Shown here: positions 12,412 through 36,458 of the stretch, piece after piece
How positions within the stretch are numbered: position 1 is the first letter of the stretch
How the letters are laid out: every line of letters starts with the position of its first letter
From: Syntrophales bacterium
GTDB taxonomy: Bacteria > Desulfobacterota > Syntrophia > Syntrophales > UBA8958
DNA: 64,000 nucleotides
Assembly: GCA_026416455.1 (NCBI GenBank)
Contig: JAOAFE010000004.1
Location: 73,468 to 137,467, forward strand
Reading direction: 5' to 3'
Position numbers and translations under genes: made by a program
The notes under the pieces: model-generated
Databases searched by the model: none
Told to the model about the DNA's origin: nothing
Seen by the model: only the letters and a program-made list of their open reading frames with translations

Positions 12412-13176
12412 ATGATTCAATCTGTTACCCGGGCCTTGGAAATTCTCGAAATCTTTCAAAGCGGGGCAGAAAGCGTGGGTATCACAGAAGTTGCCAAACA
12501 TTTAGGAATTTCCAAAGCCGCCGCCTATGCTCTGGTTACGACGCTGGAGAAAAAAAACTTTCTCCAGCAAGACGAAAACTCTCGGAGATACAAACTCGGC
12601 TTTAAAGTCCTTCAGTTGGGTGCCCTGTTCACCAATCAGAGTGAACTAGGCCGAGCCGCCCAACCCTGGGCCGTAGCACTGTGTGACCGATACGGCGAAG
12701 TAGTTCACATATCTGTTTTGGCTAAAGATGCGGCTCTCATCGTCCATCGCTATGAACCGAAGGAACCATTTTTACTCTACCCGCAGCCCGGTTCGACCAT
12801 GCCTCTAAATTCTACAGCGGGAGGCAAGATTCTTCTCGCCTATGCCCCCGTTGAGGTGCAAGAAAAATATTTGAATCAAGCTCCTTTTCCCCAGAGAACT
12901 CCCAACACCATTGTTAAAAAAAACGACCTCCTAAAGGAAATAAAGAATATACTTAAACAAGATTATGCGGAAGATCGAGAGGAAACTATTGTTGGGGTAT
13001 CTTGCGTGGGGGCTCCGATCAGGGACAAATCCGGGCGGGTCATTGCCGCCATTAGTCTCACGGGTTCGCGAACAAGAATGGAGGAAAGGGGTTGGGAAGA
13101 AATAGTGAAATCCGTCAAAATGACGGCCTTACAAATTTCTTCCGCCCTAGGATATCGCATGGATATGGGTCGTTAA
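12412..13176 (+). CDS. IclR-family transcriptional regulator
   Basis: 254 aa with an N-terminal wHTH (RALEILEIF...GITEVAKHLGISKAAAYALVTTL) and a C-terminal IclR effector domain (GVSCVGAPIRD..GRVIAAISLTG). Confidence 0.9.
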   Translation: MIQSVTRALEILEIFQSGAESVGITEVAKHLGISKAAAYALVTTLEKKNFLQQDENSRRYKLGFKVLQLGALFTNQSELGRAAQPWAVALCDRYGEVVHISVLAKDAALIVHRYEPKEPFLLYPQPGSTMPLNSTAGGKILLAYAPVEVQEKYLNQAPFPQRTPNTIVKKNDLLKEIKNILKQDYAEDREETIVGVSCVGAPIRDKSGRVIAAISLTGSRTRMEERGWEEIVKSVKMTALQISSALGYRMDMGR

Positions 13177-13197
13177 AGATTAAAAGGAGGGGGGAAA

Positions 13198-14406
13198 ATG
13201 AAAAAAGGAGGGTATTTGTTTTTTCTTTTTCTAATGGGGGTGCTAATCGTCACGACGGGGACACACCTTAGGGCCGATGAGAATACTATTACCATCGGCT
13301 ACAGTGGTCCTCTCAGTGGTGGAGGTGCCAAGTTTGGGAAAAACCTCCAAATGGGGCTCCAGATGGCCGTTGACCAAGTAAACCAAATGGGCGGTCTGGA
13401 GGTGGCAGGTAAGAAGTACCAAGTGAGGCTGATAAGTTTGGACGATCAGTTTCAGACGGCCCTCACGGTAAGTAACGCGAAAAGACTGGTCCACAAGGAA
13501 GGGGCGAAGATGATCTTCAACCCTTCAAGTGGAGGCATCTTCGGTCTTATGGCCATCAATGAGAAAGAGAAATTTATTATCTGTGCCTACACCACCAATC
13601 AGGTTTGCGTTACTTCGGGCAACAAACTGATCTTTCGGGGGCCACCGGCCATGATGGCTTATGTCCAGGCGTGGGCGAACCGAGCGATGGATAAGTTCGG
13701 TTGGAAGAAGTGTGCCATGATGCCCGATGCTTACGATTACGGCAAGCTATGGAGTGGGCTTTTCGAGAAATACTGGCAGAAGAAAGGCGGTGTAATTACT
13801 ACCCATATTCCCGTTGATTTCATGAAGCTTTCTGATTACTATCCGCTGCTCACTAAAGCCCTAGCTACCAATCCCGATTGTATTCTCATCGGTTCCTCTT
13901 CCGAACCCAATGCCATGCAGGTCAAACAGGCCCGAGAGCTCGGGTTCAGGGGCGGTTTCATCGTCATCGAACGGGGTAAATTGGAAGAGATGCTTCAGTT
14001 TGTACCCGATCCAAACATGTTAAACGGTTCTATTGGCACCTGTCCTCTCATTTTTTATCCAAATCCATCGGCCAAAAAGTTTATCAAGAAATTTAAGGAG
14101 AAATACGGAGCCGATCAGGTACCCGTCCACGAATCTGCGATAGCCTATGCGAATATCATCTACTACCTAGCGGCAATAAAGCTTGCCGGCACTACAACCG
14201 ATGTGTACAAAATAATGGATGCCCTCAAGGACCCCCGTATCCAAAAGATGCCGCTCGTGAAGGAGAATGATCCCTACGAAAATGAAAAGATCTTCCCCAA
14301 TGGGGCAGTCAAAGGTCGGGTCTTAGGGGTGGAGTTCGTAAACGGCAAATTCTCCGATCCATTCCCCGTTCCCACCCCAGATTGGGTATATACGGAAAAA
14401 TATTGA
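13198..14406 (+). CDS. ABC transporter substrate-binding protein, LivK/PBP type-1 (HAAT) family; ligand unknown
   Basis: 402 aa with a signal peptide (LFFLFLMGVLIVTTGTHLRA). ITIGYSGPLSGGGAKFGKN is typical of Peripla_BP_6-type proteins. A strong RBS (AGGAGGGG) precedes the ATG. Confidence 0.85.
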   Translation: MKKGGYLFFLFLMGVLIVTTGTHLRADENTITIGYSGPLSGGGAKFGKNLQMGLQMAVDQVNQMGGLEVAGKKYQVRLISLDDQFQTALTVSNAKRLVHKEGAKMIFNPSSGGIFGLMAINEKEKFIICAYTTNQVCVTSGNKLIFRGPPAMMAYVQAWANRAMDKFGWKKCAMMPDAYDYGKLWSGLFEKYWQKKGGVITTHIPVDFMKLSDYYPLLTKALATNPDCILIGSSSEPNAMQVKQARELGFRGGFIVIERGKLEEMLQFVPDPNMLNGSIGTCPLIFYPNPSAKKFIKKFKEKYGADQVPVHESAIAYANIIYYLAAIKLAGTTTDVYKIMDALKDPRIQKMPLVKENDPYENEKIFPNGAVKGRVLGVEFVNGKFSDPFPVPTPDWVYTEKY

Positions 14407-14419
14407 AACAAATCAGAAC

Positions 14420-14451
14420 CCACCCATCCGGGATTTTTCCCGGATGGGTGG
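14420..14451 (+). promoter_or_regulatory. Intra-operon 14-bp GC-rich stem-loop between the binding-protein gene and the first permease gene
   Basis: CCACCCATCCGGGA tttt TCCCGGATGGGTGG. No U-tract follows; instead the GGGAGG RBS and GTG start of the permease gene come next. It is probably an mRNA-stability or decoupling element rather than a full terminator. Confidence 0.6.
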
Positions 14452-14465
14452 TGGGAGGTTGAATC

Positions 14466-15326
14466 GTGGGAATCCTTTTACAGACTTTAATCAACGGCAT
14501 CATGCTCGGCTCCGTATATGCTATGGTTGCCCTGGGCCTGACCCTCATTTACGGTATCCTCAATGTACCGAACTTTGTCCACGGCACCCTTTATATGATC
14601 GGCGCTTATATTGCCTATTTTGCCATCGTATCCTTCGGAGCACCTTACTGGGTCGGGCTCATCGTATCATTGATTATTCTCTTTGCTATTGGCATCTTGC
14701 TGGAGAGGATTGTATTCCGACCTTTTTACGATAAGCCTCTTATTAACTCCTTTATCGTAGCCGTTGGGCTCATTCTCGTTCTGGAGAATACAGCCCTCAG
14801 CCTCTGGGGACCGGAATTCAGACAGTTTGCCGCTCCGAGCGATAAAGTGATTAAGGTTATGGGTGTAATGATTACGGCGCAACGTATTATTGTCATCGTA
14901 ACGGCCGCCGTTCTTATATGGTTAGTTCACCTATTCATAAAAAAAACACGGTTGGGTTCGGCTATCGAGGCCACCTCCCAAAATCCCGATGGAGCACTCC
15001 TTATGGGTATAAACATAAGCCACATGCGGGGAATAACTTTCGGCATTGGTACGGCTCTGGCCGCGGTGGCAGCGGTATTAGTCGGCCCCATCCTCTTAAT
15101 CTATCCGGCGATGGGTCACACGGTAATAGGCATGGCCTTTGTCATCATTATAATTGGAGGCATGGGTAGTTTCATCGGAGCCGTTTTAGGCGGATATATA
15201 ATCGGTATCCTCGAAACATTAGTTACCTCTTATATAACTAACTTCTTTACCGAGGCCATTATCTTCGGCCTACTCGTGCTTCTACTCGCCGTAAGGCCGA
15301 CAGGGCTGTTCGGGAAGCCGCATTGA
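14466..15326 (+). CDS. livH: HAAT-family ABC permease, LivH-type
   Basis: 286 aa, polytopic, with a GTG start. LQTLINGIMLGSVYAMVALGLTLIYG is the typical LivH N-terminus. Confidence 0.88.
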   Translation: MGILLQTLINGIMLGSVYAMVALGLTLIYGILNVPNFVHGTLYMIGAYIAYFAIVSFGAPYWVGLIVSLIILFAIGILLERIVFRPFYDKPLINSFIVAVGLILVLENTALSLWGPEFRQFAAPSDKVIKVMGVMITAQRIIVIVTAAVLIWLVHLFIKKTRLGSAIEATSQNPDGALLMGINISHMRGITFGIGTALAAVAAVLVGPILLIYPAMGHTVIGMAFVIIIIGGMGSFIGAVLGGYIIGILETLVTSYITNFFTEAIIFGLLVLLLAVRPTGLFGKPH

Positions 15327-15338
15327 TAGGGGAACGCT

Positions 15339-16310
15339 ATGGATAAAAAAAGAAAAGCCCTTTGCCTTGGTGTTCTCATTCTCATTATCCTGATTATCCC
15401 CCTCTTTATAAAAGACGAATATTACCTGCACATCTTGGTGATGAGCGGAATTTGGATTATCTCGGCCCTCTCGCTTAACCTTATTCTCGGCTATGCAGGT
15501 CAATTAAACTTGGCTCAGGGTACATTTTTCGGTATCGGCGCCTATGCTACTGGACTGCTAATGCAGAAAATGGGCCTGTCTTTCTGGGCTGCCTTACCGC
15601 TAGGTTGTCTGCTTACGGCAACGATTGGCTTCGTAACTGGGCTCCCCACTTTGCGCACGAGGGGACATTACTTCCCCATCGCCACCATGTGCCTAGGAAT
15701 AGCCATATATTACGTAATCGCCCGATGGGATGACGTTACAGGCGGGGCTCGAGGGTTATTCGGACTGCCTAGGCCCGATCCGATAGTCATTCCTTTTTTA
15801 GGCACCATATCCTTTGAAAGTACGGCCAGCTGCTATTATCTTGTCTCTTTTCTCGTCTTCATTACGATCGTCGTGATACACCGTCTTATCACATCTCTAT
15901 CCGGCAAACGTCTAATAGCCATTCGAGGCAATGAAGATCTGGCCCAAGCCCTCGGTATAAATACCATGCGGGATAAGGTAATATGTTTTACTATTAGCAC
16001 CTTCTTTGCCGGATTAGCGGGGGGAGTATTCGCCTCCTATATGGGATCCCTTATGGCCGAAAATGCCCACTTCGTCACAAGCTTCGAGATGCTGCTCAAC
16101 GTTATGATCGGTGGTGTCGGTACTATTATCGGTCCTATCATTGGCGCCATTTTTCTGCCCTTGTTGTCGGAGGAATTGCATTTTCTCGGTGGATGGCGCC
16201 TCGTCGTTTATGGCCTCATCCTCATTCTGACCATTAGATTTCTGCCCTTTGGCATCGTAGGGGGCATTCGAACGGCTTTAGCAAAAAGACACGATAAAAG
16301 GGGTGTCTGA
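15339..16310 (+). CDS. livM: HAAT-family ABC permease, LivM-type
   Basis: 323 aa, polytopic. LNLILGYAGQLNLAQGTFFGIGAY is typical of LivM. Confidence 0.88.
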   Translation: MDKKRKALCLGVLILIILIIPLFIKDEYYLHILVMSGIWIISALSLNLILGYAGQLNLAQGTFFGIGAYATGLLMQKMGLSFWAALPLGCLLTATIGFVTGLPTLRTRGHYFPIATMCLGIAIYYVIARWDDVTGGARGLFGLPRPDPIVIPFLGTISFESTASCYYLVSFLVFITIVVIHRLITSLSGKRLIAIRGNEDLAQALGINTMRDKVICFTISTFFAGLAGGVFASYMGSLMAENAHFVTSFEMLLNVMIGGVGTIIGPIIGAIFLPLLSEELHFLGGWRLVVYGLILILTIRFLPFGIVGGIRTALAKRHDKRGV

Positions 16311-17089
16311 TGGATGAATATATCTTAGAAGTCAGAAATCTGACCAAATATTTCGGTGGCCTCAAGGCGATCGATAACGTGTCTTTTAAAATAAACCGGG
16401 GGGAAATTTATAGTATCATCGGCCCTAATGGTGCCGGAAAAACTACCCTATTTAACATGATTACCGGATTTATACCTCCGACAGAAGGTGAAATCTTCTT
16501 CCAAGGACAGAAAATAAATGGGTTGAAACCGTATCAAATCGCCCGTCTGGGTATCGGCCGGACGTTTCAACTGACAACCCTTTTTATGCAAAATACAGTA
16601 TTGGAAAATCTTCTCATAGGGCAAAAACAGACCCGGGAATTCCCTGTTTTTCATTCCATCATGAGTGTCAAAAGGAGACGTGTTAGCCAATCGGAAGCAG
16701 TGGAACGAGCCCATGCGGTAGCTGAGTTCATAGGGTTGGGGACTTTTAAAAACACCATGGCGGCAATCCTGCCCCACGGGGCCCAAAAACAACTCTCCAT
16801 AGGGCTTGCCCTCTCCGGCGATCCGGATCTCATTTTGCTTGACGAACCCCTTGGTGGGGTTGACATGGACGAAATTGACATGATCATCGAACTGATAAAA
16901 AAAATCAGAGATGAAGGAAAAACGATCTGCTTAATAGAACATAAGATGAGGGTGGTCATGAATATCTCTGACCGCATTCTTGCTCTAAGCTACGGTAAGA
17001 AGCTAGTAGAAGATTTGCCGGAAGTTGTTGCTTCTAATGAAGATGTCATTGCTTCGTATTTGGGGGATAGATATGCTGCTCGAGGTTAG
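16310..17089 (+). CDS. livG: HAAT-family ABC ATP-binding protein, LivG-type
   Basis: 259 aa. Walker A GPNGAGKTT, signature-like region, Walker B LILLDEP. TGATG overlap with livM. Confidence 0.9.
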   Translation: MDEYILEVRNLTKYFGGLKAIDNVSFKINRGEIYSIIGPNGAGKTTLFNMITGFIPPTEGEIFFQGQKINGLKPYQIARLGIGRTFQLTTLFMQNTVLENLLIGQKQTREFPVFHSIMSVKRRRVSQSEAVERAHAVAEFIGLGTFKNTMAAILPHGAQKQLSIGLALSGDPDLILLDEPLGGVDMDEIDMIIELIKKIRDEGKTICLIEHKMRVVMNISDRILALSYGKKLVEDLPEVVASNEDVIASYLGDRYAARG

Positions 17090-17783
17090 ACATCTAGATT
17101 GTTATTACGGCCAGTCACAGGCCTTAAAAGAAATTAACATCGAGGTCGAGGAAGGGGAATGCATCTGTATCCTGGGCGCTAATGGGGCCGGAAAGAGTAC
17201 CCTCCTCAAGACGATAGCAGGTCTGATGAAACCACGCCGCGGCGAGATTTGGTTTACAGGGAAGAGAATGGATGAACTTCCTGCTTACACCATAGTGAGG
17301 GAAGGCATAACCCTCTGTCCGGAAGATAAAAAGATATTTCCCCAGATGAGCGTCTATAAAAACTTATGTCTCGGTGCTTGGATTCACGGAAGAAAAGAGG
17401 AGAGGATAAAGGCCAATCTAGAACACGTATATGAGCTCTTTCCCATCTTGAAAGAAAGAAGCGATCAGGACGCAGGCACCCTAAGTGGCGGGGAACAACA
17501 AATGTTAGTCATTGGCAGAAGTCTTATGTCAAATCCTCGCTTGCTCATGCTCGATGAGCCTTCTCTCGGCCTGGCACCGATGGTGGTCAACAGTATCTTT
17601 GAGACAATAAAAGAGATCAACGCCCGAAAAACAACCGTTCTATTAGTCGAACAAAATGCCTCTATGGCTTTGAAAATCGCCACGAGAGGGTATGTTATAG
17701 AGTCGGGACGCATAACTATGGCGGGCACGGCAGAGGAGCTACTTAAAAACGAAAAGGTAAAAAAAGCCTATCTCGGTATTTGA
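17073..17783 (+). CDS. livF: HAAT-family ABC ATP-binding protein, LivF-type
   Basis: The ORF track starts at 17025. I prefer ATG 17073 (MLLEVRHLDCYYG...), which overlaps the livG end by 17 nt. Walker A GANGAGKST, signature LSGGEQQ, Walker B LLMLDEPS. Confidence 0.88.
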   Translation: MLLEVRHLDCYYGQSQALKEINIEVEEGECICILGANGAGKSTLLKTIAGLMKPRRGEIWFTGKRMDELPAYTIVREGITLCPEDKKIFPQMSVYKNLCLGAWIHGRKEERIKANLEHVYELFPILKERSDQDAGTLSGGEQQMLVIGRSLMSNPRLLMLDEPSLGLAPMVVNSIFETIKEINARKTTVLLVEQNASMALKIATRGYVIESGRITMAGTAEELLKNEKVKKAYLGI

Positions 17784-17804
17784 AGCGGCAAGACGGAGGA
17801 TATT

Positions 17805-18539
17805 ATGAGCAAAGTTTCTCTGTTCATCCCGTGTTTGGTCGACATGTTTGCACCTTCCATAGGAATGGCAACCGTTGCCATTTTAGAACGCTTAGGTGTT
17901 GAAACGGTTTATCACGATGAACAAACCTGTTGTGGTCAGCCCGCCCTAAATGCTGGATATGGTAACTATGCTTTAGAAGCGGCGCGCAGGTTTATCTCTA
18001 TTTTCGGTGACGATGAGGTTATCGTTTCGCCCGCAGGTTCTTGTGTTTATATGATAAAAAGATACTATCCCGAGCTTTTAGAGGATGATCCCCTTTACCC
18101 AATGGCGGTAGACCTTTCATCTCGGGTATATGAATTAAGTCAGTATCTCGTAGACGTGTTGGATATCACAGATGTCGGGGCCCAATATGAAGGTAAGGTC
18201 GCCTACCACGAATCCTGCCATATTTTGCGGGGACTAGGCATCTCCCGTCAGCCCAAAGTCCTGCTTTCTAAAGTGAAAGGAACCGAAATAGTCCCTCTCT
18301 TTGCCGCCGAGATGTGTTGTGGCTTTGGCGGAGAGTTCGCCGATCGTTACCACTACATCTCCGAAGAGATGGTCAAAGACAAGGTAAACAACTTCCAAGC
18401 GAGCGGTGCGGACGTGCTGATTACCTGTGAACCGGGATGTTATCTCAATTTAAACGGATTCCTCCACAGGCAACAGGAAAATAAGAAAGTACTCCACCTC
18501 GCCCAATTGTTGGCAGGTCCGGAATTTCAGGGGTTATGA
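17805..18539 (+). CDS. lutA: LutA (YkgE)-type Fe-S oxidoreductase with CCG domains
   Basis: 244 aa. VSLFIPCLVD...EQTCCGQP...ESCH...CCGFGG is the typical CCG-domain pattern. Confidence 0.88.
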   Translation: MSKVSLFIPCLVDMFAPSIGMATVAILERLGVETVYHDEQTCCGQPALNAGYGNYALEAARRFISIFGDDEVIVSPAGSCVYMIKRYYPELLEDDPLYPMAVDLSSRVYELSQYLVDVLDITDVGAQYEGKVAYHESCHILRGLGISRQPKVLLSKVKGTEIVPLFAAEMCCGFGGEFADRYHYISEEMVKDKVNNFQASGADVLITCEPGCYLNLNGFLHRQQENKKVLHLAQLLAGPEFQGL

Positions 18540-18540
18540 A

Positions 18541-19986
18541 ATGAAGATTAGGACCGAAGAGTTTAACTCCATCGCAAAAAAAGAAATAAACAATGCCTAT
18601 GCGAGGGCTTTTTTGGGTCTGCTCCCGCCAATTATCGCTATGCGCCGCGTCCAGGTCATGAGCTCCTTCCCCAATCCCGACCAAGCCCTGAAACTTTCTC
18701 GGGCGATAAGAAGTGAATCAATCGCTCGACTTCCGGACCTATTGGAAGAATTCGAGCAAAAGGCGACGAAAAGTGGGGCAAAAGTTTTGTGGGCAAAGGA
18801 TGCCCAAGAGGCGAGAAAATTAGTCCTTTCTCTCATTCGGGACCGAGGAGCCACCTTTGTCACAAAAGGAAAATCGATGGTGACGGAGGAAATTGGTCTC
18901 AACGAAGCCCTGGAGCAGGCCCAGATAGAACCCATCGAGACCGATCTCGGAGAATTTATTGCCCAGCAATTAAACCGTCCTCCTTTTCACATTGTCGGTC
19001 CCGCCATAAACGTACCGGTGGAAGAAATCAGAGACCTCTTTCTCCGCGAGGGTATAATGAAAGAGGATACCACCGATCCCGTTCAGCTTGGATATGCGGC
19101 ACGTATTTATTTGCGAGACAAATTTCACCATATTAAAGTTGGGCTGACAGGCGTCAATATGGCAGTGGCCGAAACAGGTACGATTATAAACGTGGAAAAC
19201 GAAGGGAATATAAGGTTCAACAAATCTTCGCCGATAACCCAAATCTCCATTATGACTCCGGAGAAGGTCGTTCCCTCTTTGCGGGACGCGATGCATATAA
19301 TCAGGCTTCTTTGCCGTAGTTGCACAGGTCAGAAGATTTCAGCCTATGTTACCCTGGATACGGGACCCAAGAAGGCGGGAGAAATAGACGGACCGGAAGA
19401 ACTATACATTATTATCGTAGATAACGGCCGGTCAGAAATCTACGCCAATCCGCGGACAAGAGAAGTTCTCAGGTGCATAAGATGTGGTGCCTGCCTTAAC
19501 ACCTGTCCCGTTTACACCAAAATAGGTGGGTATCCCTATGGGTGGGCCTATTCAGGACCCATGGGTCAAATACTAAATCCGCTCCTTCTCGGTCTCGATC
19601 GCACCCAGGACCTGTATAGAGCATGTACCCAATGTGGTACCTGTCGAGATATCTGTCCCGGTGGTATTGATCATCCAGCGCTTTTTCTCTACTACCGGTC
19701 TTGCGATGTTGAAGGAAACGAAAAGCTGGCCGGCAAGAAAAGGCCCCGGTCGGAAAGGATTTCTTTTTCTCTCTGGGGTCTGGCCGTAAAAAACAAGTTA
19801 CTTTGGAATACGGCTCTCCGTTTAGGACGTTTCCTAACAAAGAAATATTCATCCGACGGATGGCTCACGAATTTGGGCCGGTTATTTCCCGGTTGGTTTA
19901 AAGAAAGGGATTTTCCGAGCATAAGCGACTCAACGTTTCGGGAACGATGGAAAGAAATGAGGAAAGGCAAATATGGACACCCGTAA
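18541..19986 (+). CDS. lutB: LutB (YkgF)-type iron-sulfur protein (LUD domain plus 2x[4Fe-4S])
   Basis: 481 aa. CIRCGACLNTCPVY and CTQCGTCRDICP follow a LUD/DUF162 region. There is a 1-nt gap after lutA. Confidence 0.88.
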   Translation: MKIRTEEFNSIAKKEINNAYARAFLGLLPPIIAMRRVQVMSSFPNPDQALKLSRAIRSESIARLPDLLEEFEQKATKSGAKVLWAKDAQEARKLVLSLIRDRGATFVTKGKSMVTEEIGLNEALEQAQIEPIETDLGEFIAQQLNRPPFHIVGPAINVPVEEIRDLFLREGIMKEDTTDPVQLGYAARIYLRDKFHHIKVGLTGVNMAVAETGTIINVENEGNIRFNKSSPITQISIMTPEKVVPSLRDAMHIIRLLCRSCTGQKISAYVTLDTGPKKAGEIDGPEELYIIIVDNGRSEIYANPRTREVLRCIRCGACLNTCPVYTKIGGYPYGWAYSGPMGQILNPLLLGLDRTQDLYRACTQCGTCRDICPGGIDHPALFLYYRSCDVEGNEKLAGKKRPRSERISFSLWGLAVKNKLLWNTALRLGRFLTKKYSSDGWLTNLGRLFPGWFKERDFPSISDSTFRERWKEMRKGKYGHP

Positions 19987-20641
19987 AGAGATAATAAATC
20001 GCCTGAGAAGTGCTCCTCGATCGTCATCGGAACCCAGACCCGACGTGCCACCTCTTCCTGAACTAGCCCTGGGACGAAGTGAGCTAATCCAAAAGCTCAT
20101 GGACGAACTGACAAAACTCGAGGTGTCCTGTCATCGGGTGGTAAGAGAAGAGGTACGGGAAAAGCTAGCAGAAATATTGGTCGGAGAAGGCATAACTAAG
20201 GTCATAGTGTCAAACGATAGGATAGTTTCAGCCTTCGATCTTTCCGCGTGGGGAAAGGAACGGGGTTTTATGGTCTATCGCTCTTCCGATTTTAATGATC
20301 GAGACACTTTAAAACGGGTCGTCTTTGAAGAAGTTGAAGCCGGTGTGACGGGCGTTGACTTTGCCGTCGCCGAAAGCGGTACCTTGGGGATAATTCATGA
20401 CCATAATCAACCTCGCCTCGTTTCGCTTGCCCCCGTTACCCATATTGCGCTAGTACCAACCTCGAAGGTGGTACCCATCTACGAGCAGGTGGTGGACGAG
20501 GTATTCTTGAAAGGAGGTAACATACCATCTCAGTTTACCTTCATTACCGGCCCCAGTATGACGGCCGACATCAAGGCGACTCCTTTCAAGGGCATGCATG
20601 GACCCAGACGTTTGATCGCAATAATTTACGATGACGATTAG
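19973..20641 (+). CDS. lutC: LutC (YkgG)-type LUD-domain protein
   Basis: 222 aa with a 14-nt overlap with lutB. GVTGVDFAVAESGTL...TGPSMTADI is typical of the LUD domain. Confidence 0.85.
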   Translation: MDTRKEIINRLRSAPRSSSEPRPDVPPLPELALGRSELIQKLMDELTKLEVSCHRVVREEVREKLAEILVGEGITKVIVSNDRIVSAFDLSAWGKERGFMVYRSSDFNDRDTLKRVVFEEVEAGVTGVDFAVAESGTLGIIHDHNQPRLVSLAPVTHIALVPTSKVVPIYEQVVDEVFLKGGNIPSQFTFITGPSMTADIKATPFKGMHGPRRLIAIIYDDD

Positions 20642-20650
20642 GAGAAAAGA

Positions 20651-21904
20651 ATGATCACGTTGAGCGTTCCTTCACGTCTCTGGTACGAAAATGTGGAGAG
20701 GGAGTTGAGTTTTCCCGATCACTGGGAAATCGAGAATCTCACCTCTCCCGGATTGGAAAAGAAAGAAATCTCCTCCGATGAAATAAGGGCGAAAATAGAA
20801 AAACCAATCGCCGGTCCAGACCTATCCACCCTCGCCAAAGGAAAGAGGGAAGCGGTCATCATCTTCGATGACATGACGCGCCCCACACCGGTTAAGGATG
20901 TAATCCCCCACGTCCTGGAAATACTGCATCAGGCGGGCTTAGGGCGCGATCAGATAAGATTCATCTGGGCTTTAGGTTCTCACGGAGCCTACGATATGAT
21001 CAATGCTCGCAAAAAACTAGGTGATTATGTCGTAGAAAACTATGCAGTTTACAATCACGATCCTTTCCAGAATACAGTTCGTCTCGGTCGAACCCCCACG
21101 GGGGTGGAGGTATGGATTAACCGAGAAGTTATGGGCTGTGATCTGAAAATAGGCATCGGTTGCATTACCCCCCACGTCCATGTGGGTTTTGGCGGTGGAG
21201 GAAAGATAATACTACCCGGTGTTGCGGGAATCGAATCCATCAATCAATTCCATAATCGCCTCTACCACGACCCCACTCGAACGGGATTGGGAAATTTCGA
21301 TCAGAACATTATGCGGTTGGAATGTGATGCCGCCGCCTCTTTAGTCGGACTGGACTATAAGATAGACTGTCTTGTCAACCGACGCGGCAAAATTACCAAT
21401 CTTTACGCCGGTCCCTTCCAGTTAACTCACAGCGCCGGTGCTACCGAGGGAAAAGACCATTACGGTATTATCACTGCCGGTAATTTCGATATCGCCATCT
21501 GCAACTCATACGCTAAAGCTAATGAAGCCGCCATTGCCCTCTTGCTCGCCTTAAGTGTGCTCAAACTCGATGGCTCTGGAACGGCCGTCCTCATCTCCGA
21601 TGCCCCCGAAGGACAAGTACCCCATTACGTGATGAGGGCTTGGGGATCCAACTATGGTGGTCGTCATTTTACACCCAAAGAAAAGGGCGGCAAGTCGGCC
21701 GTCGCTTTCTTGAAAAAACTCATCGTTCTCGCTCCCCACCCAGATCGGACGATGCTCGATTTAGTTTGTCATCCCGATGACGCGATCATCGTTAAGACCT
21801 GGGAAGAGGTGCTTGAGATACTATCCATGGATTATTCGAAAAAGGCCAGGGTCGCCGTCATTCCCGACGGTACAATGCAATACGTAAAAAAACCGGTATC
21901 GTGA
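20651..21904 (+). CDS. LarA-family (nickel-pincer dependent) 2-hydroxy-acid racemase/epimerase homologue
   Basis: 417 aa with a DUF2088-like N-terminus. Motifs: IIFDDMTRPTP, ALGSHG, ITPHVHVGFGGGGKIILPG, QFHN. These resemble the LarA active-site segments in a by-eye alignment. Confidence 0.8.
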   Translation: MITLSVPSRLWYENVERELSFPDHWEIENLTSPGLEKKEISSDEIRAKIEKPIAGPDLSTLAKGKREAVIIFDDMTRPTPVKDVIPHVLEILHQAGLGRDQIRFIWALGSHGAYDMINARKKLGDYVVENYAVYNHDPFQNTVRLGRTPTGVEVWINREVMGCDLKIGIGCITPHVHVGFGGGGKIILPGVAGIESINQFHNRLYHDPTRTGLGNFDQNIMRLECDAAASLVGLDYKIDCLVNRRGKITNLYAGPFQLTHSAGATEGKDHYGIITAGNFDIAICNSYAKANEAAIALLLALSVLKLDGSGTAVLISDAPEGQVPHYVMRAWGSNYGGRHFTPKEKGGKSAVAFLKKLIVLAPHPDRTMLDLVCHPDDAIIVKTWEEVLEILSMDYSKKARVAVIPDGTMQYVKKPVS

Positions 21905-21935
21905 CCAATCCACAACCTACGAGGAGGTTCGTTTA

Positions 21936-23042
21936 ATGGAAGAAAAGAAGCTAACGCGGGGACAGCAAGAGGTACGTGAAAAAGTAATTTCTCTAGGTTT
22001 ATGCACAGGATGTGGCGCGTGCATTAACCTATGCCCGTACTTTCGTTCCCATCGAGGAAAAACATCTATTTTGTTTCCCTGCACCGTTGAGAACGGACGC
22101 TGTTTCGCCTTTTGTCCCAAAATCGAGGTCGATTTGGATAACCTTTCCCTCTCCATTTTTGACCAACCTTACGACGGCAATGCCTTGGGCAGGTACCGTT
22201 CAATTTTCACCGCAAAGGCCGGAGAGAAAATAAAATCCTTCGAAGCCCAGGCAGGAGGTACGGTTTCATCCCTCGTCTATTATGCATTGACGAAAGGCTA
22301 TATCTCCGGGGCCGTCCTCACAGATCGCCGAGGGTTAGAACCGATACCGAGATACGTTACGAACGCGGAAGATGTGTTTTCTTGCAGCCAGTCCAAATAT
22401 ACCGCAGCTCCCACTCTGGCCGTTGTGAACGAAGTTGTGGAAAAAGGAGAAGTAAATATCGGCGTAGTGGGTACCCCCTGCCAGATACTGGCTTTGGCCC
22501 AAATGAAAACTCGTGAAAAACCATATCCCATTTCGCTTTCGATAGGGCTTTTCTGCACTTGGGCCATTGATTTTCGTCTTTTTGAACCCTTCATATCGAG
22601 GTGGATCCAAGCAAGCCATATTCGAAAAGTTGATATCCCACCACCTCCGGCTGAAATACTCCAGATTTTTACCTCTCAAGGGGAAAAAATAGAAATCCCT
22701 CTCTCCGAGATTCGTCCCCTCGTTCCGAAAGGGTGTGCCTACTGTATGGACATGACTTCCGAGTTTTCAGATATCTCTGTGGGAGTCTTGGAGGGCCGCC
22801 CTGATATGAACACTCTCATCGTTCGGACGGAACGCGGTCAGAAACTTGTCGATGAAGCCATCAAAGAAGGGTATCTCATCGTCTCCGATATGCCCAAAGA
22901 AAATCTTGAACACCTCCTTTGGGCAGCGGGAAACAAAAAACAGAGGGCACTGAAGCGGGCGAGTGATGAAAATCTAATAAACTGCGAGTCCTTATCCTAC
23001 TTGCGCCTCAAAGGCGAATTACTAAATCAGCTGACTCAATGA
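21936..23042 (+). CDS. FrhB/FdhB-family (coenzyme F420 hydrogenase/dehydrogenase beta-like) flavo-iron-sulfur protein
   Basis: 368 aa. It has an N-terminal ferredoxin-like CTGCGACINLCP...CFAFCP, the GTPCQ motif, and C-terminal CAYCMDMTSEFSDISVG. Confidence 0.8.
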   Translation: MEEKKLTRGQQEVREKVISLGLCTGCGACINLCPYFRSHRGKTSILFPCTVENGRCFAFCPKIEVDLDNLSLSIFDQPYDGNALGRYRSIFTAKAGEKIKSFEAQAGGTVSSLVYYALTKGYISGAVLTDRRGLEPIPRYVTNAEDVFSCSQSKYTAAPTLAVVNEVVEKGEVNIGVVGTPCQILALAQMKTREKPYPISLSIGLFCTWAIDFRLFEPFISRWIQASHIRKVDIPPPPAEILQIFTSQGEKIEIPLSEIRPLVPKGCAYCMDMTSEFSDISVGVLEGRPDMNTLIVRTERGQKLVDEAIKEGYLIVSDMPKENLEHLLWAAGNKKQRALKRASDENLINCESLSYLRLKGELLNQLTQ

Positions 23043-23055
23043 AGGGAGGTCATCC

Positions 23056-24993
23056 ATGTCTCACTTATTAGATCCAAAAGCAGGCGCAACTTATCTGTTA
23101 ATGGGAAATGAAGCCATCGTAAGGGGAGCGCTGGAAGCAGGCGTCAACGTTGCCAGTGGTTATCCGGGAACCCCCTCTTCGGAAATCATAGAAAACCTTT
23201 CACGTATTGCAAAAGAAAGAAACATCTACGTGGAATGGTCGGTAAATGAAAAGGTGGCCCTTGAAGTTGCCGCCGCCGCATCTTTCGCTGGACTGCGTTC
23301 CCTGTGCGCCATGAAACAAAACGGTGTCAATGTGGCCTCAGATTTTCTCCTTCACCTTGTATATTCCGGAACCAGAGGAGGAATAGTACTAGTTTCTTGT
23401 GACGATCCGGGTGCATTATCCAGTGTCAACGAGGGAGAATCAAGATACTTTGCCCGCCAATTGGAAATGCCTCTGTTGGAGCCGGGCAATTTTCAGGAAG
23501 CCAAAGATATGACCAAATGGGCGTTCGAGCTTTCGGAACAGTTGAAACAAATTGTCATGTTACGCAGTGTAACTCGTATGTCTCATGCAAGCGGTAACGT
23601 GTCATACGGAGCGCTACCGGAGACCAAACGCAAAGCCGAGTTTAAATTCAAAGGTTTCATCCTCGACCCGGAGGAAGGAATAATTACGAGTGCACCCGTC
23701 GAATGGCGACATAAAGAGCAACAAGATAAAATAAGAAAAGCAAAAGAAATCTTCGAAGAATCGCCTTTCAACACCTATGAGGGGCCGGATAAGCCCGAAC
23801 TTTTAATTATTACGAGCAGTGCATGTTACTTGTACAGCAAAGAAGCTGTAGAGGTGCTCAACGTACAAGACCGGGTGGGCATCCTTAAGTTGGGTACGAC
23901 ATGGCCATTGCCGCCTAAACTGGTAACACATTATCTCGCCAGAACGGAACAAGTTATGATTGTGGAAGAAGTCATCCCCTTTATGGAGGAAAACGTGAAA
24001 GTGCTGGCCGCGGAAAAGGCTGGTGAGATAGGAGCAAAGAAATTCTTCGGGAAGAACGAAGGTGTGCTACCTTCGGTTGGAGAGATGAACCCTGATTTTG
24101 TAATAAGCGCTATTTCCTCTATTTTGGGAATAGACTATTCACCCGTTTCCAAAGAGTATGATCAATCGGCCAAACTGTCAGCCTTTGTGCACGCTCCAGC
24201 CAGAGATCAGGTCTTCTGTCCCGGATGTCCCCATCGTGCCTCTTTCTTTGCCATTCGCCGGGCAATAGAACTAGACGGTCGCAATGGTTTCGTTTGTGGT
24301 GACATAGGATGTTACACCATGGCCGTCAGACCAACGGGATTCGAAACCTTAAAGACGGTTCATTCGATGGGGTCCGGCATGGGCTTGGCAAGTGGTTTCG
24401 GTAAGTTAGGGCTTTTCGGCATGGATCAACCGACCTTTGCGGTTTGCGGCGACTCAACCTTTTACCACGCCGTAATACCCGCCTTGATCAACGCCGTCCA
24501 TAATAAATCTAACGTAACTCTCGTTATTCTCGATAATGGCGGAACGGCGATGACAGGTTTTCAACCGCATCCAGGTCAAGATTTTAATGTAATGGGCGAA
24601 AGTATGCCCGCCATCGATATGGCCCGTATCTGTGAAGCCATCGGTGCCCGAGTTGAAAAAAGAAATCCCTTAGATTTAGAGGACACCCTCCATACCCTGC
24701 TCGAGATGATGGAAGATAAAAACGGAGTCAAAGTGCTCATTCTAAGTCAATATTGTGCCTTAAGTCCCCAAAGGAGAGGGAAAAAAGACTATGAACTTTC
24801 GGTCGATGAAACGGTGTGCTTGGGAGAAGAATGCGGTTGTGGAAGATTCTGCACACGAATCTTCCGATGCCCTGGTCTCGTCTGGAACAAAGAAAAGGCA
24901 AAAGCCGAAATAGACCAGGTGATATGCGTTGGTTGTGGGGTGTGTGCTGATATTTGCCCGCGGGGTGCAATCAAGCGGAAGGAGGTGGCCTAA
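23056..24993 (+). CDS. iorA: Indolepyruvate:ferredoxin oxidoreductase alpha subunit, divergent paralogue
   Basis: 645 aa. Motifs: GNEAIVRGALEAGVNVASGYPGTPSSEI, GDIGCYT, GDSTFYH, DNGGTAMTG, and a C-terminal CVGCGVCADICP ferredoxin module. It starts 13 nt after the FrhB-like gene and has a GGGAGG RBS. Confidence 0.88.
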   Translation: MSHLLDPKAGATYLLMGNEAIVRGALEAGVNVASGYPGTPSSEIIENLSRIAKERNIYVEWSVNEKVALEVAAAASFAGLRSLCAMKQNGVNVASDFLLHLVYSGTRGGIVLVSCDDPGALSSVNEGESRYFARQLEMPLLEPGNFQEAKDMTKWAFELSEQLKQIVMLRSVTRMSHASGNVSYGALPETKRKAEFKFKGFILDPEEGIITSAPVEWRHKEQQDKIRKAKEIFEESPFNTYEGPDKPELLIITSSACYLYSKEAVEVLNVQDRVGILKLGTTWPLPPKLVTHYLARTEQVMIVEEVIPFMEENVKVLAAEKAGEIGAKKFFGKNEGVLPSVGEMNPDFVISAISSILGIDYSPVSKEYDQSAKLSAFVHAPARDQVFCPGCPHRASFFAIRRAIELDGRNGFVCGDIGCYTMAVRPTGFETLKTVHSMGSGMGLASGFGKLGLFGMDQPTFAVCGDSTFYHAVIPALINAVHNKSNVTLVILDNGGTAMTGFQPHPGQDFNVMGESMPAIDMARICEAIGARVEKRNPLDLEDTLHTLLEMMEDKNGVKVLILSQYCALSPQRRGKKDYELSVDETVCLGEECGCGRFCTRIFRCPGLVWNKEKAKAEIDQVICVGCGVCADICPRGAIKRKEVA

Positions 24994-24996
24994 GAA

Positions 24997-25617
24997 ATGA
25001 CGACAAGCAAGCTTCCTAAAGATCCTTATAGCATTGTCATCACTGGAGTGGGGGGGCAAGGAAATGTTATGGCCTCTCGTGTACTTGCGAACATGCTGGT
25101 AAAAAAAGGATACTATGTTACCATCGGAGAGACTTTTGGTGCTTCTCAGCGCGGTGGATCGGTGATGAGTCACATCCGCGTATCCAACCTCTCCGCCTGG
25201 AGTCCCCAAATACCGGCGGGAAAGGCCCACTTAGTCGTAGCCTTAGAACCCATTGAGGCCATCAGAGTGCTCGCTCGTTACGGGAATCCGGATATTAAAG
25301 TGCTTTCTAACCTAAGGCCCATCTATCCGGCAGGAGTAATTGCTGGGGAAGCCTCTTATCCCAATGAACAGGAGATAAGAACAATTTTAGAAAAGCATAC
25401 ATCGAAATATTGGCTCATTAAAGCCACAGAAGAAGCCGTAAAATTAGGTAATCCCATCCTGGCAAATGTTATGATGGTCGGAGCTACTTGTGCCATCGGG
25501 GATCTTCCCTTCGACAGAAATGATTTTATAGATGCCATGTCTCAAGTCTTATCGGGTGACAAAATGGAAACAAACATAAAAGCCTTCGAGTTAGGATTCT
25601 CTTTACTCATGAAATAA
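24997..25617 (+). CDS. iorB: Indolepyruvate:ferredoxin oxidoreductase beta subunit (POR-gamma-type domain)
   Basis: 206 aa. IVITGVGGQGNVMASRVLA...GETFGASQRGGSV is the typical IorB pattern. There is a 3-nt gap after iorA. Confidence 0.88.
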   Translation: MTTSKLPKDPYSIVITGVGGQGNVMASRVLANMLVKKGYYVTIGETFGASQRGGSVMSHIRVSNLSAWSPQIPAGKAHLVVALEPIEAIRVLARYGNPDIKVLSNLRPIYPAGVIAGEASYPNEQEIRTILEKHTSKYWLIKATEEAVKLGNPILANVMMVGATCAIGDLPFDRNDFIDAMSQVLSGDKMETNIKAFELGFSLLMK

Positions 25618-25629
25618 ACCATTAAAAAC

Positions 25630-25658
25630 GGGGGGTATGTCTGCTACCCCCCTTTTTT
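25630..25658 (+). terminator. Rho-independent terminator closing the 13-gene operon
   Basis: GGGGGGTA tgtctgc TACCCCCC followed by TTTTTT, that is, an 8-bp GC-rich stem, a 7-nt loop and a U-tract. Confidence 0.85.
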
Positions 25659-25661
25659 AGC

Positions 25662-25690
25662 TTGCCAAAAAAGCTACGTATCTATATCAT
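25662..25690 (+). promoter_or_regulatory. Candidate sigma70-type promoter; the predicted start falls at or next to the ATG of the small membrane ORF
   Basis: TTGCCA (25662-25667), a 17-nt spacer, then TATCAT (25685-25690). The ATG at 25697 lies 7 nt after the -10 element, and no SD is visible. Confidence 0.45.
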
Positions 25691-25696
25691 AACTTC

Positions 25697-25948
25697 ATGC
25701 GGGAAAAAATTTGCTCAATTAATATGATAAAATTGATCCTCGCTGGCTTAGGAGGAGTAATTATCACCTACATCGGTGTGTGCCACCTGATGACATCTTA
25801 CGAAGTCAATAATCCTCACGTATTCATTATGTACTTTTTTTCTTCATCTTTTATGATCTTAGTGGGGCTCACTCTTATGGCTTATTTCATCTGCCATCTA
25901 TGGAGTATATTCACCAAACACCCAAATATTTCCACTATTAAAGATTAG
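25697..25948 (+). CDS. Small two-TM membrane protein, function unknown
   Basis: 83 aa with two hydrophobic helices (LILAGLGGVIITYIGVCHLM; FIMYFFSSSFMILVGLTLMAYFICHLW). Its stop lies 4 nt before the M16 ATG. An alternative start is M10 (25724). Confidence 0.5.
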   Translation: MREKICSINMIKLILAGLGGVIITYIGVCHLMTSYEVNNPHVFIMYFFSSSFMILVGLTLMAYFICHLWSIFTKHPNISTIKD

Positions 25949-25952
25949 CACT

Positions 25953-27434
25953 ATGAACTTGAGGCATCTTGGCAGTCTTGTTCTGCTCCTTGCCCTTACA
26001 ACTTCCTCTGCTCTGGCGCAAGACCTATCATTAGACAAGCGTATTCACAGTTTTGAATTAAAAAACGGATTGAAGGTGCTTATATTGGAGCGACACATAA
26101 GCCCCACGGTAGCCCTATATTTGGCTTATCGGGTGGGAGCAGTAGATGAACAAGAGGGAAAGACGGGAACAGCTCATTTTTTGGAACACATGATGTTTAA
26201 GGGAACGAAAACAATCGGAACCCGTAATCAAGCGAAGGAAGAGCGACTCCTCAATAAAATATTGAAAACCGGCAAACGACTTGATCAGGAAATAAATCGA
26301 GGAGAGAAAGCCGATAAAGAGAAAATCGAGGCCTTAAAAAGGACCCTTGCCCATTTAAAAAAAGAGCATCGGAAATGGATGATCTCGAATGAGATTGACC
26401 GCCTCTATACGGAAGCAGGGGCGATCAATATTAATGCCTCGACCGGTCAGGATATCACAATCTACCATGCCAGTTTTCCCGCGAACAAGATAGAACTATG
26501 GATGAGGGTCGAGTCAGAACGCATGAAGGAGGTCGTCCTGAGAGAATTTTACGAAGAAAGGAATGTGGTTTTAGAAGAAAGAAAGCAGAGAAAGGAAGCA
26601 AACCCACAAGGGGCCCTTTACGAGGCCTTTATGTCCCTCGCTTTCCAGCGTCACCATTACCGACGACCCATAATCGGCTGGGCGGAAGATGTGGCCCGTC
26701 TTCAACCAGAAGATTTGATTAGTTTTAAAAGGAAGCTTTATGTACCGAATAATGCAACGATAGCCATCGTCGGAGATGTAGATGCAAAAAAGACGTTGAA
26801 AATGGTGAAAACATATTTCGGGGCTATACCCCGGGCATACCTTCAAACTCCTCCCATTCCCGACGAACCTGTGTTGAAGGGTGAAAAGAGGATTTCCCTT
26901 GATGTAAAGGCATCGCCTCAAATTATGATCGGTTATCATAAGCCACCAGCTCCCCACCCAGACGATTATGTCTTCGATTTAATAGAATCTATACTTTCCC
27001 GGGGCCGTTCGGCCAGGCTACCTAAGAGATTAGTGGATGAAAAGGCCATTGCCCTCAGCGTTGAAGCCCAAAATGGTTTACCCGGTTCGCGCTTTAATAA
27101 TCTTTTCATTATCTTTGGCCGTCCCAGAGACGGAAAAACTAATGCTGAATTAATGGCCTATATAGATGAAATTTTGGAAGAATTGAAAAACCGAGAGATA
27201 GACGATCAGGAGCTGGAAGCAGCAAAAAATAATATCGTGGCTGATTTTGTTCGCCTTCAAGAATCAAATGAAGGAATGGCCCGGATGCTCGCTTATAATC
27301 AAGCTATCATTGGAGATTATCGGTATACCTTCACCTATCTCGGTCGAATTAAAGAGATTACCCCAGCTGATATCCGACGGGTGGCCCAAAAATACTTGAT
27401 AAAAAATGGGAGAGTGATCGCTACGATCGATTGA
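25953..27434 (+). CDS. M16-family zinc peptidase, catalytic subunit (secreted)
   Basis: 493 aa with a signal peptide (LVLLLALTTSSALA-Q) and an inverted zincin motif HFLEH in GTAHFLEHMMFKGT. Confidence 0.88.
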   Translation: MNLRHLGSLVLLLALTTSSALAQDLSLDKRIHSFELKNGLKVLILERHISPTVALYLAYRVGAVDEQEGKTGTAHFLEHMMFKGTKTIGTRNQAKEERLLNKILKTGKRLDQEINRGEKADKEKIEALKRTLAHLKKEHRKWMISNEIDRLYTEAGAININASTGQDITIYHASFPANKIELWMRVESERMKEVVLREFYEERNVVLEERKQRKEANPQGALYEAFMSLAFQRHHYRRPIIGWAEDVARLQPEDLISFKRKLYVPNNATIAIVGDVDAKKTLKMVKTYFGAIPRAYLQTPPIPDEPVLKGEKRISLDVKASPQIMIGYHKPPAPHPDDYVFDLIESILSRGRSARLPKRLVDEKAIALSVEAQNGLPGSRFNNLFIIFGRPRDGKTNAELMAYIDEILEELKNREIDDQELEAAKNNIVADFVRLQESNEGMARMLAYNQAIIGDYRYTFTYLGRIKEITPADIRRVAQKYLIKNGRVIATID

Positions 27435-35491: not shown

Positions 35492-36458
35492 ATTTCCAGC
35501 ATCTAACAAAATGACCTGGTTTTTTTTCACATAAAAGAGGTCTCCCATGGCTGCATTTGCTCATTTTATCTGAACAACGCTCTTGAAATCTGCAGCCTTT
35601 AACTTCTTGGGAAAGCAATAGGACGCTCCCGGGAATGCTCCGGAGGCGGGCATCTCTCATAGAGGGCAAATCATCCGGAGGAATCGATTCCATAAGCCCC
35701 AGCGTATAAGGGTGCAAGGGTGAAGAAAAGAGCTCTTCGGTTGAAGCCATTTCGACTATTTCCCCGGCATACATAACCGCTATTCGTTCGGCTATTTCAC
35801 ACACCACCCCCAGATCATGGGTGATAAACAGGATAGACGTACCAAGAGAAGACTGAAGGTCCTTCAACAGAGATACTATCTGCGCCTGGATGGTTACATC
35901 CAGGGCCGTCGTTGGTTCATCGGCAATCATGAGCTCCGGTTCCAGTATCAAAGCCATAGCAATCATGACCCTTTGTCTCATACCGCCGCTTAATTGATGA
36001 GGATAATCGTTTATCCTTTTTTCGGCAGCCGGAAATCCAACGCGGGTCAGCATCTCAACGGCCATATCCCGCGCCTCCTTTTTCGATACCTTTCTATGGG
36101 CATGAACGGCTTCCATTATTTGATCCCCGATGCGGAAAACGGGGTTCAAAGCCGTCATAGGTTCTTGAAAAATCATCGATATCCTGCTTCCCCGGATCTT
36201 TCTCATCTCCTCATCGGGCAACTCAAGGAGGGACAGTCCGTCAAAAGTAATGGTCCCCCTAACTATTCTCGCCGTGGAAGCGGGTAATAATCTCATCACG
36301 GAAAGGGCCAGGACCGTTTTTCCGCATCCCGATTCTCCCACCACGCCTAACACTTCACCTTTGGCCATTGAAAGATCGACTCCCTCGACGGCCCTAACAA
36401 TCCCGCGATTTGTAAAAAAATGAGTGGCCAGGTCTTCTATGCGCAGGAGCTCCGTCAT
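35484..36458 (-). CDS. Oligopeptide/dipeptide-type ABC ATP-binding protein (OppD/DppD-like)
   Basis: The ORF track starts at 36557. I prefer ATG 36458 ([10 protein letters not shown]...), which forms an ATGA overlap with the pepA stop. Walker [23 protein letters not shown], and a C-terminal Cys-rich tail. Confidence 0.85.

Follow-up and report, generated by a model that had tools for sequence, protein, structure and literature searches.

An FrhB-like protein encoded with IorAB in Syntrophales and related bacteria: a probable flavin output module of a distinct 2-oxoacid oxidoreductase clade

Metabolic reconstructions treat indolepyruvate:ferredoxin oxidoreductase (IOR) and other 2-oxoacid:ferredoxin oxidoreductases (OFORs) as enzymes that reduce ferredoxin. 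Here we analyse a 64-kb stretch of DNA from a Syntrophales bacterium (contig JAOAFE010000004.1; the whole stretch is hereafter called the window), in which a gene for a flavo-iron-sulfur protein of the FrhB/FdhB family immediately precedes iorA and iorB. The closest described systems are archaeal. The zeta subunit of the F420-reducing CO dehydrogenase (CODH) of Ca. Ethanoperedens thermophilum (PDB entry 8RIU, chain B) docks through its ferredoxin domain on the distal cluster of CODH, a ferredoxin-type enzyme, and chain E of 8RJA plays the same role on formylmethanofuran dehydrogenase (Fwd) (Lemaire et al. 2024, PMC11493965). In ANME-1 archaea, the FrhB paralogues called FrhB6 cluster with pyruvate:ferredoxin oxidoreductase (PFOR) and others with CODH, and it was argued that FrhB-PFOR and FrhB-CODH complexes would work only oxidatively (Chadwick et al. 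2022, PMC9012536). The flavin-module principle is established for archaeal CODH and Fwd and hypothesised for archaeal PFOR; the novelty of the present case lies in a bacterial setting, with hosts that apparently lack F420, in an IOR as partner enzyme and in the remodelling of the protein's substrate-side motifs. A full-text literature search returned only these archaeal precedents and no report of an association between FrhB-like proteins and IorAB in bacteria.

On balance, we think it probable that this FrhB-like protein is the dedicated flavin and iron-sulfur output module of a distinct IOR clade and reduces a hydride carrier other than canonical F420. The IOR clade with an FrhB-like partner is found mostly in Desulfobacterota (Syntrophales). 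We hold the dedicated partnership itself with high confidence, because the operon is conserved, no other partner recurs and the zeta subunit offers a precedent. That the protein is a stable third subunit strikes us, by analogy with zeta, as an even bet; failing this, it would be at least a committed redox partner. The unit, in the coordinates of the window, is composed as follows.

21936..23042 (+): gene of the FrhB-like flavo-iron-sulfur protein, 368 aa, ATG start, TGA stop at 23040-23042
21987..22133 (+): N-terminal ferredoxin-like domain of the FrhB-like protein, residues ~18-66
22479..22745 (+): predicted ligands of the FrhB-type [4Fe-4S] cluster, C182 (in GTPCQ), C207 (in GLFC), C267 and C270 (in CAYC)
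22632..22655 (+): clade signature DIPPPPAE, residues 233-240, at the position aligned with the DIGKGK turn of F420-dependent FrhB proteins
23043..23055 (+): spacer of 13 nt between the FrhB-like gene and iorA, holding the iorA ribosome-binding site AGGGAGG
23056..24993 (+): iorA, 645 aa, with POR_N, a thiamine pyrophosphate (TPP)-binding domain and a C-terminal 2x[4Fe-4S] domain (Pfam)
24817..24960 (+): ferredoxin domain at the C-terminus of IorA (residues 588-635), where, by analogy with 8RIU, the FrhB-like protein would dock and electrons would leave
24997..25617 (+): iorB, encoding an IorB-type beta subunit of 206 aa (Pfam POR), 3 nt after iorA
25630..25658 (+): hairpin resembling an intrinsic terminator, 8 pairs of which 6 are G-C, followed by T6, at the operon end

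The ATG of the FrhB-like open reading frame (ORF) is preceded by GAGGAGG at 21921-21927. Coordinates, Pfam and NCBIfam agree with the original prediction, which had read this DNA as encoding a 368-aa FrhB/FdhB-family protein ending 13 nt before iorA, with iorB a further 3 nt on.

The juxtaposition of the FrhB-like gene and iorA is not a matter of chance. With one genome taken per GTDB species, a motif scan detected relatives of the FrhB-like protein in 185 species; the best 80 loci were kept, and their gene order was read by tblastn with the window proteins, the starts being alignment-derived. In every scored genome locus that has DNA downstream (77 of 77), iorA and then iorB follow the FrhB-like gene on its strand. 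The gap between the first two genes has a median of 14 nt and is at most 40 nt in 74 of the 77, their frames overlapping in 18 loci, and the median gap between iorA and iorB is 2 nt. Three loci were left unscored: L032 and L034 end at a contig edge after the FrhB-like gene, and in L057 iorA follows, with an alignment that stops short of the N-terminus. The hosts of the 80 loci are mostly Syntrophales, Syntrophaceae and other Desulfobacterota, with a few labelled Spirochaetota, Leptospirales or Gemmatimonadota, and a homologue search started from a protein of a Syntrophus metagenome-assembled genome (MAG) gave MAG and metagenome proteins only, with no cultured host among them. One locus, L016 (CP070657.1, 8001-10731), was considered as an exception to the linkage and rejected as disrupted: its frhB-like gene is split into two ORFs, the match to iorA breaks off after ~101 residues, and the opposite strand carries an ORF of 470 aa. 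The disruption may represent an insertion or an assembly error.

The surroundings of the trio vary widely, as unrelated genes flank it from locus to locus. A census of ORF families over the 80 loci counted the FrhB-like family 77 times, IorA 68 times and IorB 56 times; the next commonest was LarA with 9, and no fourth recurrent partner family emerged. This census bears on an idea raised in the original prediction, that the FrhB-like protein could belong functionally to the LutABC/LarA module encoded upstream of it. In the window and in its closest relative, L006 (80% identity), the FrhB-like gene does stand directly after larA; L006 has the full window operon in common and is the only locus with that arrangement. 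Across the 80 loci, however, LutB and LutC homologues occur in just 4-5 and LarA in 9, and LutABC and LarA are sometimes found downstream or on the opposite strand (L004, L014), while iorA is always the next gene. We rejected membership of the Lut module on this distribution and find it barely credible. Since only three families recur, and Lut and LarA are rare and variably placed, the FrhB-like gene travels with iorAB and not with the Lut module.

The linkage also extends to distant relatives. When cluster representatives at 50% identity were searched exhaustively, 3273 relatives came up, and 211 of these reached E <= 1e-30. An IorA-type gene lies downstream of the FrhB-like homologues sampled at 46, 40, 36, 34 and 33% identity, with overlapping stop and start codons in several of these loci. 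Downstream of a homologue at 38% identity, a 100-residue ORF fragment begins 3 nt past the stop, and the homologue in L088 (37% identity) sits on a 2.3-kb contig too short for its downstream gene to be judged. The reverse test began from the other side, with a metagenome scan using an alignment of divergent partner IorAs. This gave 80 loci whose IorA is 46-58% identical to that of the window; three were short of upstream DNA, and the FrhB-like gene lies directly upstream of IorA in 73 of the 77 usable ones. The linkage is deep and nearly, but not strictly, reciprocal. Co-occurrence with iorAB in related genomes, whose absence had been named beforehand as telling against a dedicated partner of IorAB, is thus conserved, and the idea is borne out by the 77 genome loci, by homologues down to 33% identity and by the count from the IorA side.

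The FrhB-like protein matches Pfam FrhB_FdhB_N (PF04422; 53.6 bits, cut-off 22, E 2.5e-14) and FrhB_FdhB_C (PF04432; 106.1 bits, cut-off 23.3, E 2e-30), with a weak Fer4 match at its N-terminus, and its architecture comprises an N-terminal ferredoxin-like domain, an FrhB-type [4Fe-4S]/FAD core and a C-terminal helical extension. Seven cysteines of the ferredoxin-like domain (C23, C26, C29, C33, C49, C56 and C60) are invariant in an alignment of 13 sequences; residues 23-34 read CTGCGACINLCP, and the second group follows the pattern C49-x6-C56-x3-C60-P. In Fsr, the N-terminal domain binds two clusters with the same seven-cysteine pattern and one Glu ligand. C150, tried as an eighth ligand of this domain, was dropped, its conservation being confined to the near clade. 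GTPCQ at residues 179-183 and CAYC...DISVG at 267-283 complete the set of motifs named in the original prediction, which are all present together with the ferredoxin-like cysteines. Within the core, C182, C207, C267 and C270 are invariant in the same alignment and match Cys104/134/192/195 of FrhB and the PC...C...CxxC pattern of Fsr. The FAD elements are also kept, namely the helix start Q105-x-G107-G108, the K154-Y155 loop and D279-G283 (DISVG), in which the flavin-adjacent S281-V282 is retained. With these cofactor motifs, the protein is predicted to bind FAD.

Sequence and fold point to the same relatives. The best PDB sequence match is 8riu_B (E 1.4e-38, residues 13-338), followed by FrhB of Methanothermococcus, 8RJA chain E and the N-terminal half of Fsr. 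An AlphaFold2 model of the FrhB-like protein (pTM 0.78, mean pLDDT 73, with the N-terminal iron-sulfur domain of low confidence) gave Foldseek TM-scores of 0.75 to full-length 8riu_B and of 0.82-0.84 to FrhB chains (target-normalised). The fold search with this model ranks the relatives as the sequence search does, with 7-hydroxymethyl-chlorophyll reductase (HCAR) clearly farther: the HCAR match 5dqr has E ~4e-14 at 12-16% identity, weaker than the F420-type members, and no HCAR chain appeared at E <= 0.01 in the PDB sequence search.

The likeness to zeta is one of both architecture and genetic setting. Like the window protein, zeta combines a ferredoxin domain, an FrhB-type [4Fe-4S]/FAD core and a C-terminal extension, and it is encoded in the operon of an otherwise ferredoxin-reducing enzyme, from which it diverts electrons to flavin. 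The third-subunit idea of the original prediction thereby gains a structural precedent, as the nearest structure shows an F420-reductase subunit added on to a different ferredoxin-type enzyme. The differences are equally clear. The zeta and Fwd-associated subunits serve CODH or Fwd, whereas the partner here is an IOR-type 2-oxoacid oxidoreductase; zeta comes from Ca. Ethanoperedens, whereas the present hosts are bacteria of phyla without reported F420 production. The ferredoxin domain has eight cysteines in zeta and seven here, and DIGEGK and GLLCTETF of zeta correspond to DIPPPPAE and GLFCTWAI. Identity to the Ethanoperedens FrhB-like subunits is ~24-33%, and we infer a complex in the window from genes and homology. 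Closer in its partner enzyme is the FrhB6-PFOR pair of ANME-1, in which an FrhB gene is likewise conserved beside a 2-oxoacid:ferredoxin oxidoreductase and read as a route to a hydride carrier. That pair is archaeal, has F420-containing hosts and PFOR as the partner, and its reading is likewise drawn from gene clusters only. Finally, FrhB, the N-terminal half of Fsr and FpoF/FqoF have the same fold, cluster ligands and FAD loop as the window protein, with the seven-cysteine N-terminal ferredoxin domain also found in Fsr; they differ in the proposed F420-tail turn, the partner enzyme and the level of the family scores.

The proposed F420-tail turn bears on the acceptor. In the cryo-EM study of FrhB, the F420 ring lies beside S209-V210 and beside the turn 163-IGKGK, the sole conserved part of a small sheet, and the lysines of this turn were proposed, from a ~5.5 Å map, to hold the F420 phosphate. 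The Fsr and Ethanoperedens papers describe the F420 site just as a 'positively charged cleft'. At the aligned position FrhB has DIGKGK, zeta DIGEGK, Fsr DIKKGK and the Fwd-associated subunit DVKKEG, whereas the window protein has DIPPPPAE, which carries a three-residue insertion and not a single lysine relative to the F420-type turn. Of 120 close homologues of the FrhB-like protein, 119 have DIPPPP; IOR-linked homologues farther away carry other lysine-poor variants. Two further motifs are altered: GLFC-x-E of the F420 enzymes is GLFC-T-W in the clade, a form found in 98 of the 150 best cluster representatives, and Q-D-G-G is Q-A-G-G.

The protein could nevertheless be a genuine F420 reductase, the trio then being a 2-oxoacid:F420 oxidoreductase in hosts that make or scavenge F420 or its precursor FO. 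Its closest relatives by sequence and structure (zeta, FrhB, the Fwd-associated subunit and Fsr) are all F420-dependent, the flavin-side S281-V282 and the K-Y loop are retained, and the host bacteria are often neighbours of methanogens. Set against this are the replacement of the IGKGK/IKKGK turn by DIPPPPAE together with the two altered motifs, and scores far under the NCBIfam cut-offs (136 vs 331.5 bits for FrhB, TIGR03289, and 87 vs 475 for FpoF). A 2021 review of F420 distribution lists producers or biosynthesis genes in Actinobacteria, Chloroflexi, Alpha- and Betaproteobacteria, Tectomicrobia, Acidobacteria, Firmicutes, Nitrospinae, Rokubacteria and Dadabacteria, a list from which Desulfobacterota and Spirochaetota are absent, and our literature search found no report of F420 biosynthesis in the host groups. 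No F420 biosynthesis gene is present among the ~50 ORFs of the window that were annotated, out of 57 called (1357-54498), the host genomes beyond the window not having been searched, and no F420-related neighbour recurs near the trio in the census of 80 loci. The original prediction had seen no sign of F420 biosynthesis in the window, and this stands for the annotated ORFs; it had allowed for a deazaflavin acceptor more readily than we do now. Because the lysine contact came from a low-resolution map, loss of the turn suggests, and does not prove, that F420 is not bound. The turn, the motifs, the family scores and the host phyla are each an indirect argument; taken together, they make canonical F420 probably the less likely acceptor, and we regard a true F420 reductase as unlikely.

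IorA and IorB themselves have the architecture of an IOR, with POR_N, TPP_enzyme_C and Fer4 in IorA and POR in the adjacent IorB (Pfam). IOR_alpha and IOR_beta are by a wide margin their best NCBIfam models, and domain order and TPP and iron-sulfur motifs are those of the canonical two-subunit IorAB of Pyrococcus, Methanococcus and Firmicutes. Both score just below the equivalog cut-offs (IorA, TIGR03336, 614.9 vs 650.9 bits; IorB, IOR_beta, TIGR03334, 158.4 vs 205.8), and we therefore would be cautious in presuming arylpyruvate substrates. The FrhB-linked IorAs form, by alignment, a clade of their own. They carry ~40 extra residues relative to canonical IorA, and the first motif of their ferredoxin domain reads C-x4-C-x-C-x3-C-x5-CP where the canonical form is CxxCxxCx5CP. 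In Firmicutes, iorA and iorB on annotated replicons form two-gene units followed by a phenylacetate-CoA ligase gene, and the FrhB-like gene is absent; these IorAs have 592-608 aa and 35-37% identity to the partner-clade IorA, and lack its N-terminal extension, its two inserted segments and its altered first iron-sulfur motif. Four loci (L120, L152, L157 and L178) encode an IorA and IorB of the partner clade, with 52-56% identity to the window IorA, and show no FrhB-like gene within 3 kb. The C-x4-C-x-C-x3-C motif is kept in their IorAs, so that this unusual motif is a trait of the clade and not strictly tied to the partner.

From these features we infer complex formation, the direction of electron flow and the identity of the acceptor as follows. 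IorAB would decarboxylate a 2-oxoacid oxidatively at TPP, yielding acyl-CoA and CO2, and the two [4Fe-4S] clusters in the C-terminal ferredoxin domain of IorA would carry two electrons out of the enzyme. The FrhB-like protein would receive them in its N-terminal ferredoxin-like domain and lead them across the FrhB-type [4Fe-4S] cluster (C182/C207/C267/C270) to FAD, which would pass a hydride to a soluble two-electron carrier. The overall reaction would be independent of free ferredoxin and effectively irreversible. Our best guess for the carrier, by elimination, is NAD(P)+. A similar logic is known from PadEFGHI of Aromatoleum/Thauera, an NADH-dependent phenylglyoxylate dehydrogenase of five subunits in which extra iron-sulfur and flavin subunits lead electrons to pyridine nucleotide. 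The likeness is one of logic only, as its flavoprotein does not belong to the FrhB family and its core is of another OFOR subfamily; in NCBIfam, the PadG and PadE models are just weak matches to IorA and IorB.

Several points weigh against this proposal, beyond the F420-dependence of the nearest relatives. We know of no FrhB-family member that uses NAD(P), and syntrophs normally gain more by keeping electrons at the low potential of ferredoxin than by dropping them to ~-320 mV. In one distant locus (L097, 450-4014; 33% identity), the FrhB-like and IorA-type genes overlap by 4 nt and are followed by a PilZ gene and not by iorB. Within 3 kb, 4 of the 77 usable loci of the reverse test lack an FrhB-like gene, so the protein may be dispensable to the IorAB core. 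No FrhB::IorA fusion was found among the best 150 cluster representatives, the longest of which has at most 605 aa where a fusion is expected to have ~1000 aa.

As for the substrate, the trio forms in the window the tail of a longer cluster, which is variable between genomes.

12412..21904 (+): upstream cluster, with the trio as its tail
12412-13176 (+): IclR regulator
13198-17783 (+): LivKHMGF-type ATP-binding cassette (ABC) transporter
17805-20641 (+): LutA, LutB and LutC
20651-21904 (+): LarA-like racemase

The LarA-like protein scores under every NCBIfam cut-off for LarA homologues, the best being malate racemase LarAH6 with 201 vs 500 bits. The cluster looks like a system for the uptake, racemisation and oxidation of some 2-hydroxy acid that feeds the oxidoreductase, and it probably supplies the 2-oxoacid substrate. 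In other genomes, unrelated 2-hydroxy or 2-amino acid dehydrogenases lie beside the trio (L086, 9913-12497; L095, 8823-9836; L152, 334-2750; L004, 13872-19491). Across these loci, they include a GlcD/GlcF-like pair, D-isomer 2-hydroxyacid dehydrogenases, a Glu/Leu/Phe/Val-dehydrogenase-like gene, and LutABC with a UxaA-like dehydratase and LarA. A functional theme thus recurs without a conserved gene, and these neighbours in different genomes suggest that the substrates are 2-oxoacids derived from 2-hydroxy or amino acids.

These neighbours can also be read differently. HCAR and BciB are FrhB-family members of organisms without F420, and they reduce organic substrates with electrons from ferredoxin. 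The FrhB-like protein could be a free-standing reductase of this type, which would pass electrons from IorAB-reduced ferredoxin to an organic metabolite at its FAD site; one candidate reaction is the reduction of a second 2-oxoacid to a 2-hydroxyacid, a dismutation. The characterised F420-less members do reduce organic substrates, an HCAR fold match is seen, the substrate-side motifs are remodelled, and 2-hydroxyacid enzymes of three families occur near the trio in several loci. However, the tight spacing and frequent frame overlap concern iorA specifically, no gene for a further pathway step recurs, and the protein is nearer to the docking-type zeta than to HCAR. In the window operon, moreover, oxoacid reduction beside the hydroxyacid-oxidising LutABC would be futile. 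We consider such a reductase rather improbable.

A further alternative reverses the electron flow. IOR is anabolic in Methanococcus, and the FrhB-like protein might likewise feed IorAB with electrons for reductive carboxylation of acyl-CoA to 2-oxoacid, so that amino acids could be made from scavenged acids. In line with this, many copies of the trio are surrounded by housekeeping genes and have no catabolic neighbours. Against it, the IclR regulators, transporters and dehydrogenases found nearby suggest catabolism, and a flavin hydride donor at ~-320 to -340 mV cannot drive a carboxylation at ~-500 mV (compare PMC9012536). An anabolic role therefore seems to us very improbable.

Returning to the output-module proposal, we regard a wider form of it as possible, if less likely than not: that three-component 2-oxoacid oxidoreductases are widespread in uncultured anaerobic bacteria, and that their FrhB-derived module has lost F420 binding and bypasses free ferredoxin by delivering electrons to NAD(P)+ or an unrecognised hydride carrier. 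This class would extend over the 185 GTDB species of the motif scan and comprise some 100 clusters at 50% identity. If real, a flavin output module integral to the enzyme would change the predicted carrier and energetics from ferredoxin to a hydride carrier at ~-320 mV, with consequences for how Syntrophales and related anaerobes, which are dominant in methanogenic and sediment communities, degrade amino acids and hydroxy acids. The rewiring of a ferredoxin enzyme by an FrhB-like module, recently proven for CODH and Fwd of ethane-oxidising archaea, would then extend to bacteria and the OFOR superfamily, which raises the question of what the FrhB fold reduces in organisms without known F420. 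If the F420-independent three-component reading is correct, the FrhB family would gain its first member that docks on an enzyme and does not depend on F420. The point has a practical side. Members of the clade go under 'coenzyme F420 hydrogenase subunit beta' in source annotations, and the frhB genes of bacterial MAGs were taken as hydrogenase genes in at least one study (PMC10116835). For the IOR-linked clade, this hydrogenase reading is probably wrong, and if the module is independent of F420, 'frhB' annotations in bacterial MAGs would mark neither hydrogenases nor F420 metabolism.

A few observations concern the surroundings of the trio. In L004 (5913-9790), and also in L005, a molybdate/tungstate-type ABC transporter (SBP_bac_11, permease and TOBE-domain ATPase) lies directly upstream of the FrhB-like gene. 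In L004 its three genes are on the FrhB-like strand, with a divergent HTH_17/PBP_like regulator, and the ATPase is also found in L025. We know of no need of IOR for Mo or W. In the window, a perfect G+C-rich hairpin of 14 bp (14420-14451) separates the binding-protein gene from the first permease gene of the ABC transporter, and it may serve in attenuation or in stabilising the mRNA, thereby setting an excess of binding protein. Just past the operon terminator, an 83-aa hydrophobic ORF with no Pfam match (25697-25948) is preceded by a sigma-70-like site (25662-25690); it may encode a small membrane protein or be no gene at all. The remaining annotated ORFs of the window are housekeeping. Past the operon and on its strand, before phoH and ybeY, come three peptidase genes (25953-30102), two of the M16 family and one M20, and a pair of oligopeptide ABC ATPase genes with an M17 aminopeptidase gene is found at 34517-37930. 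These peptidase and oligopeptide genes are consistent with a lifestyle of peptide and amino-acid degradation.

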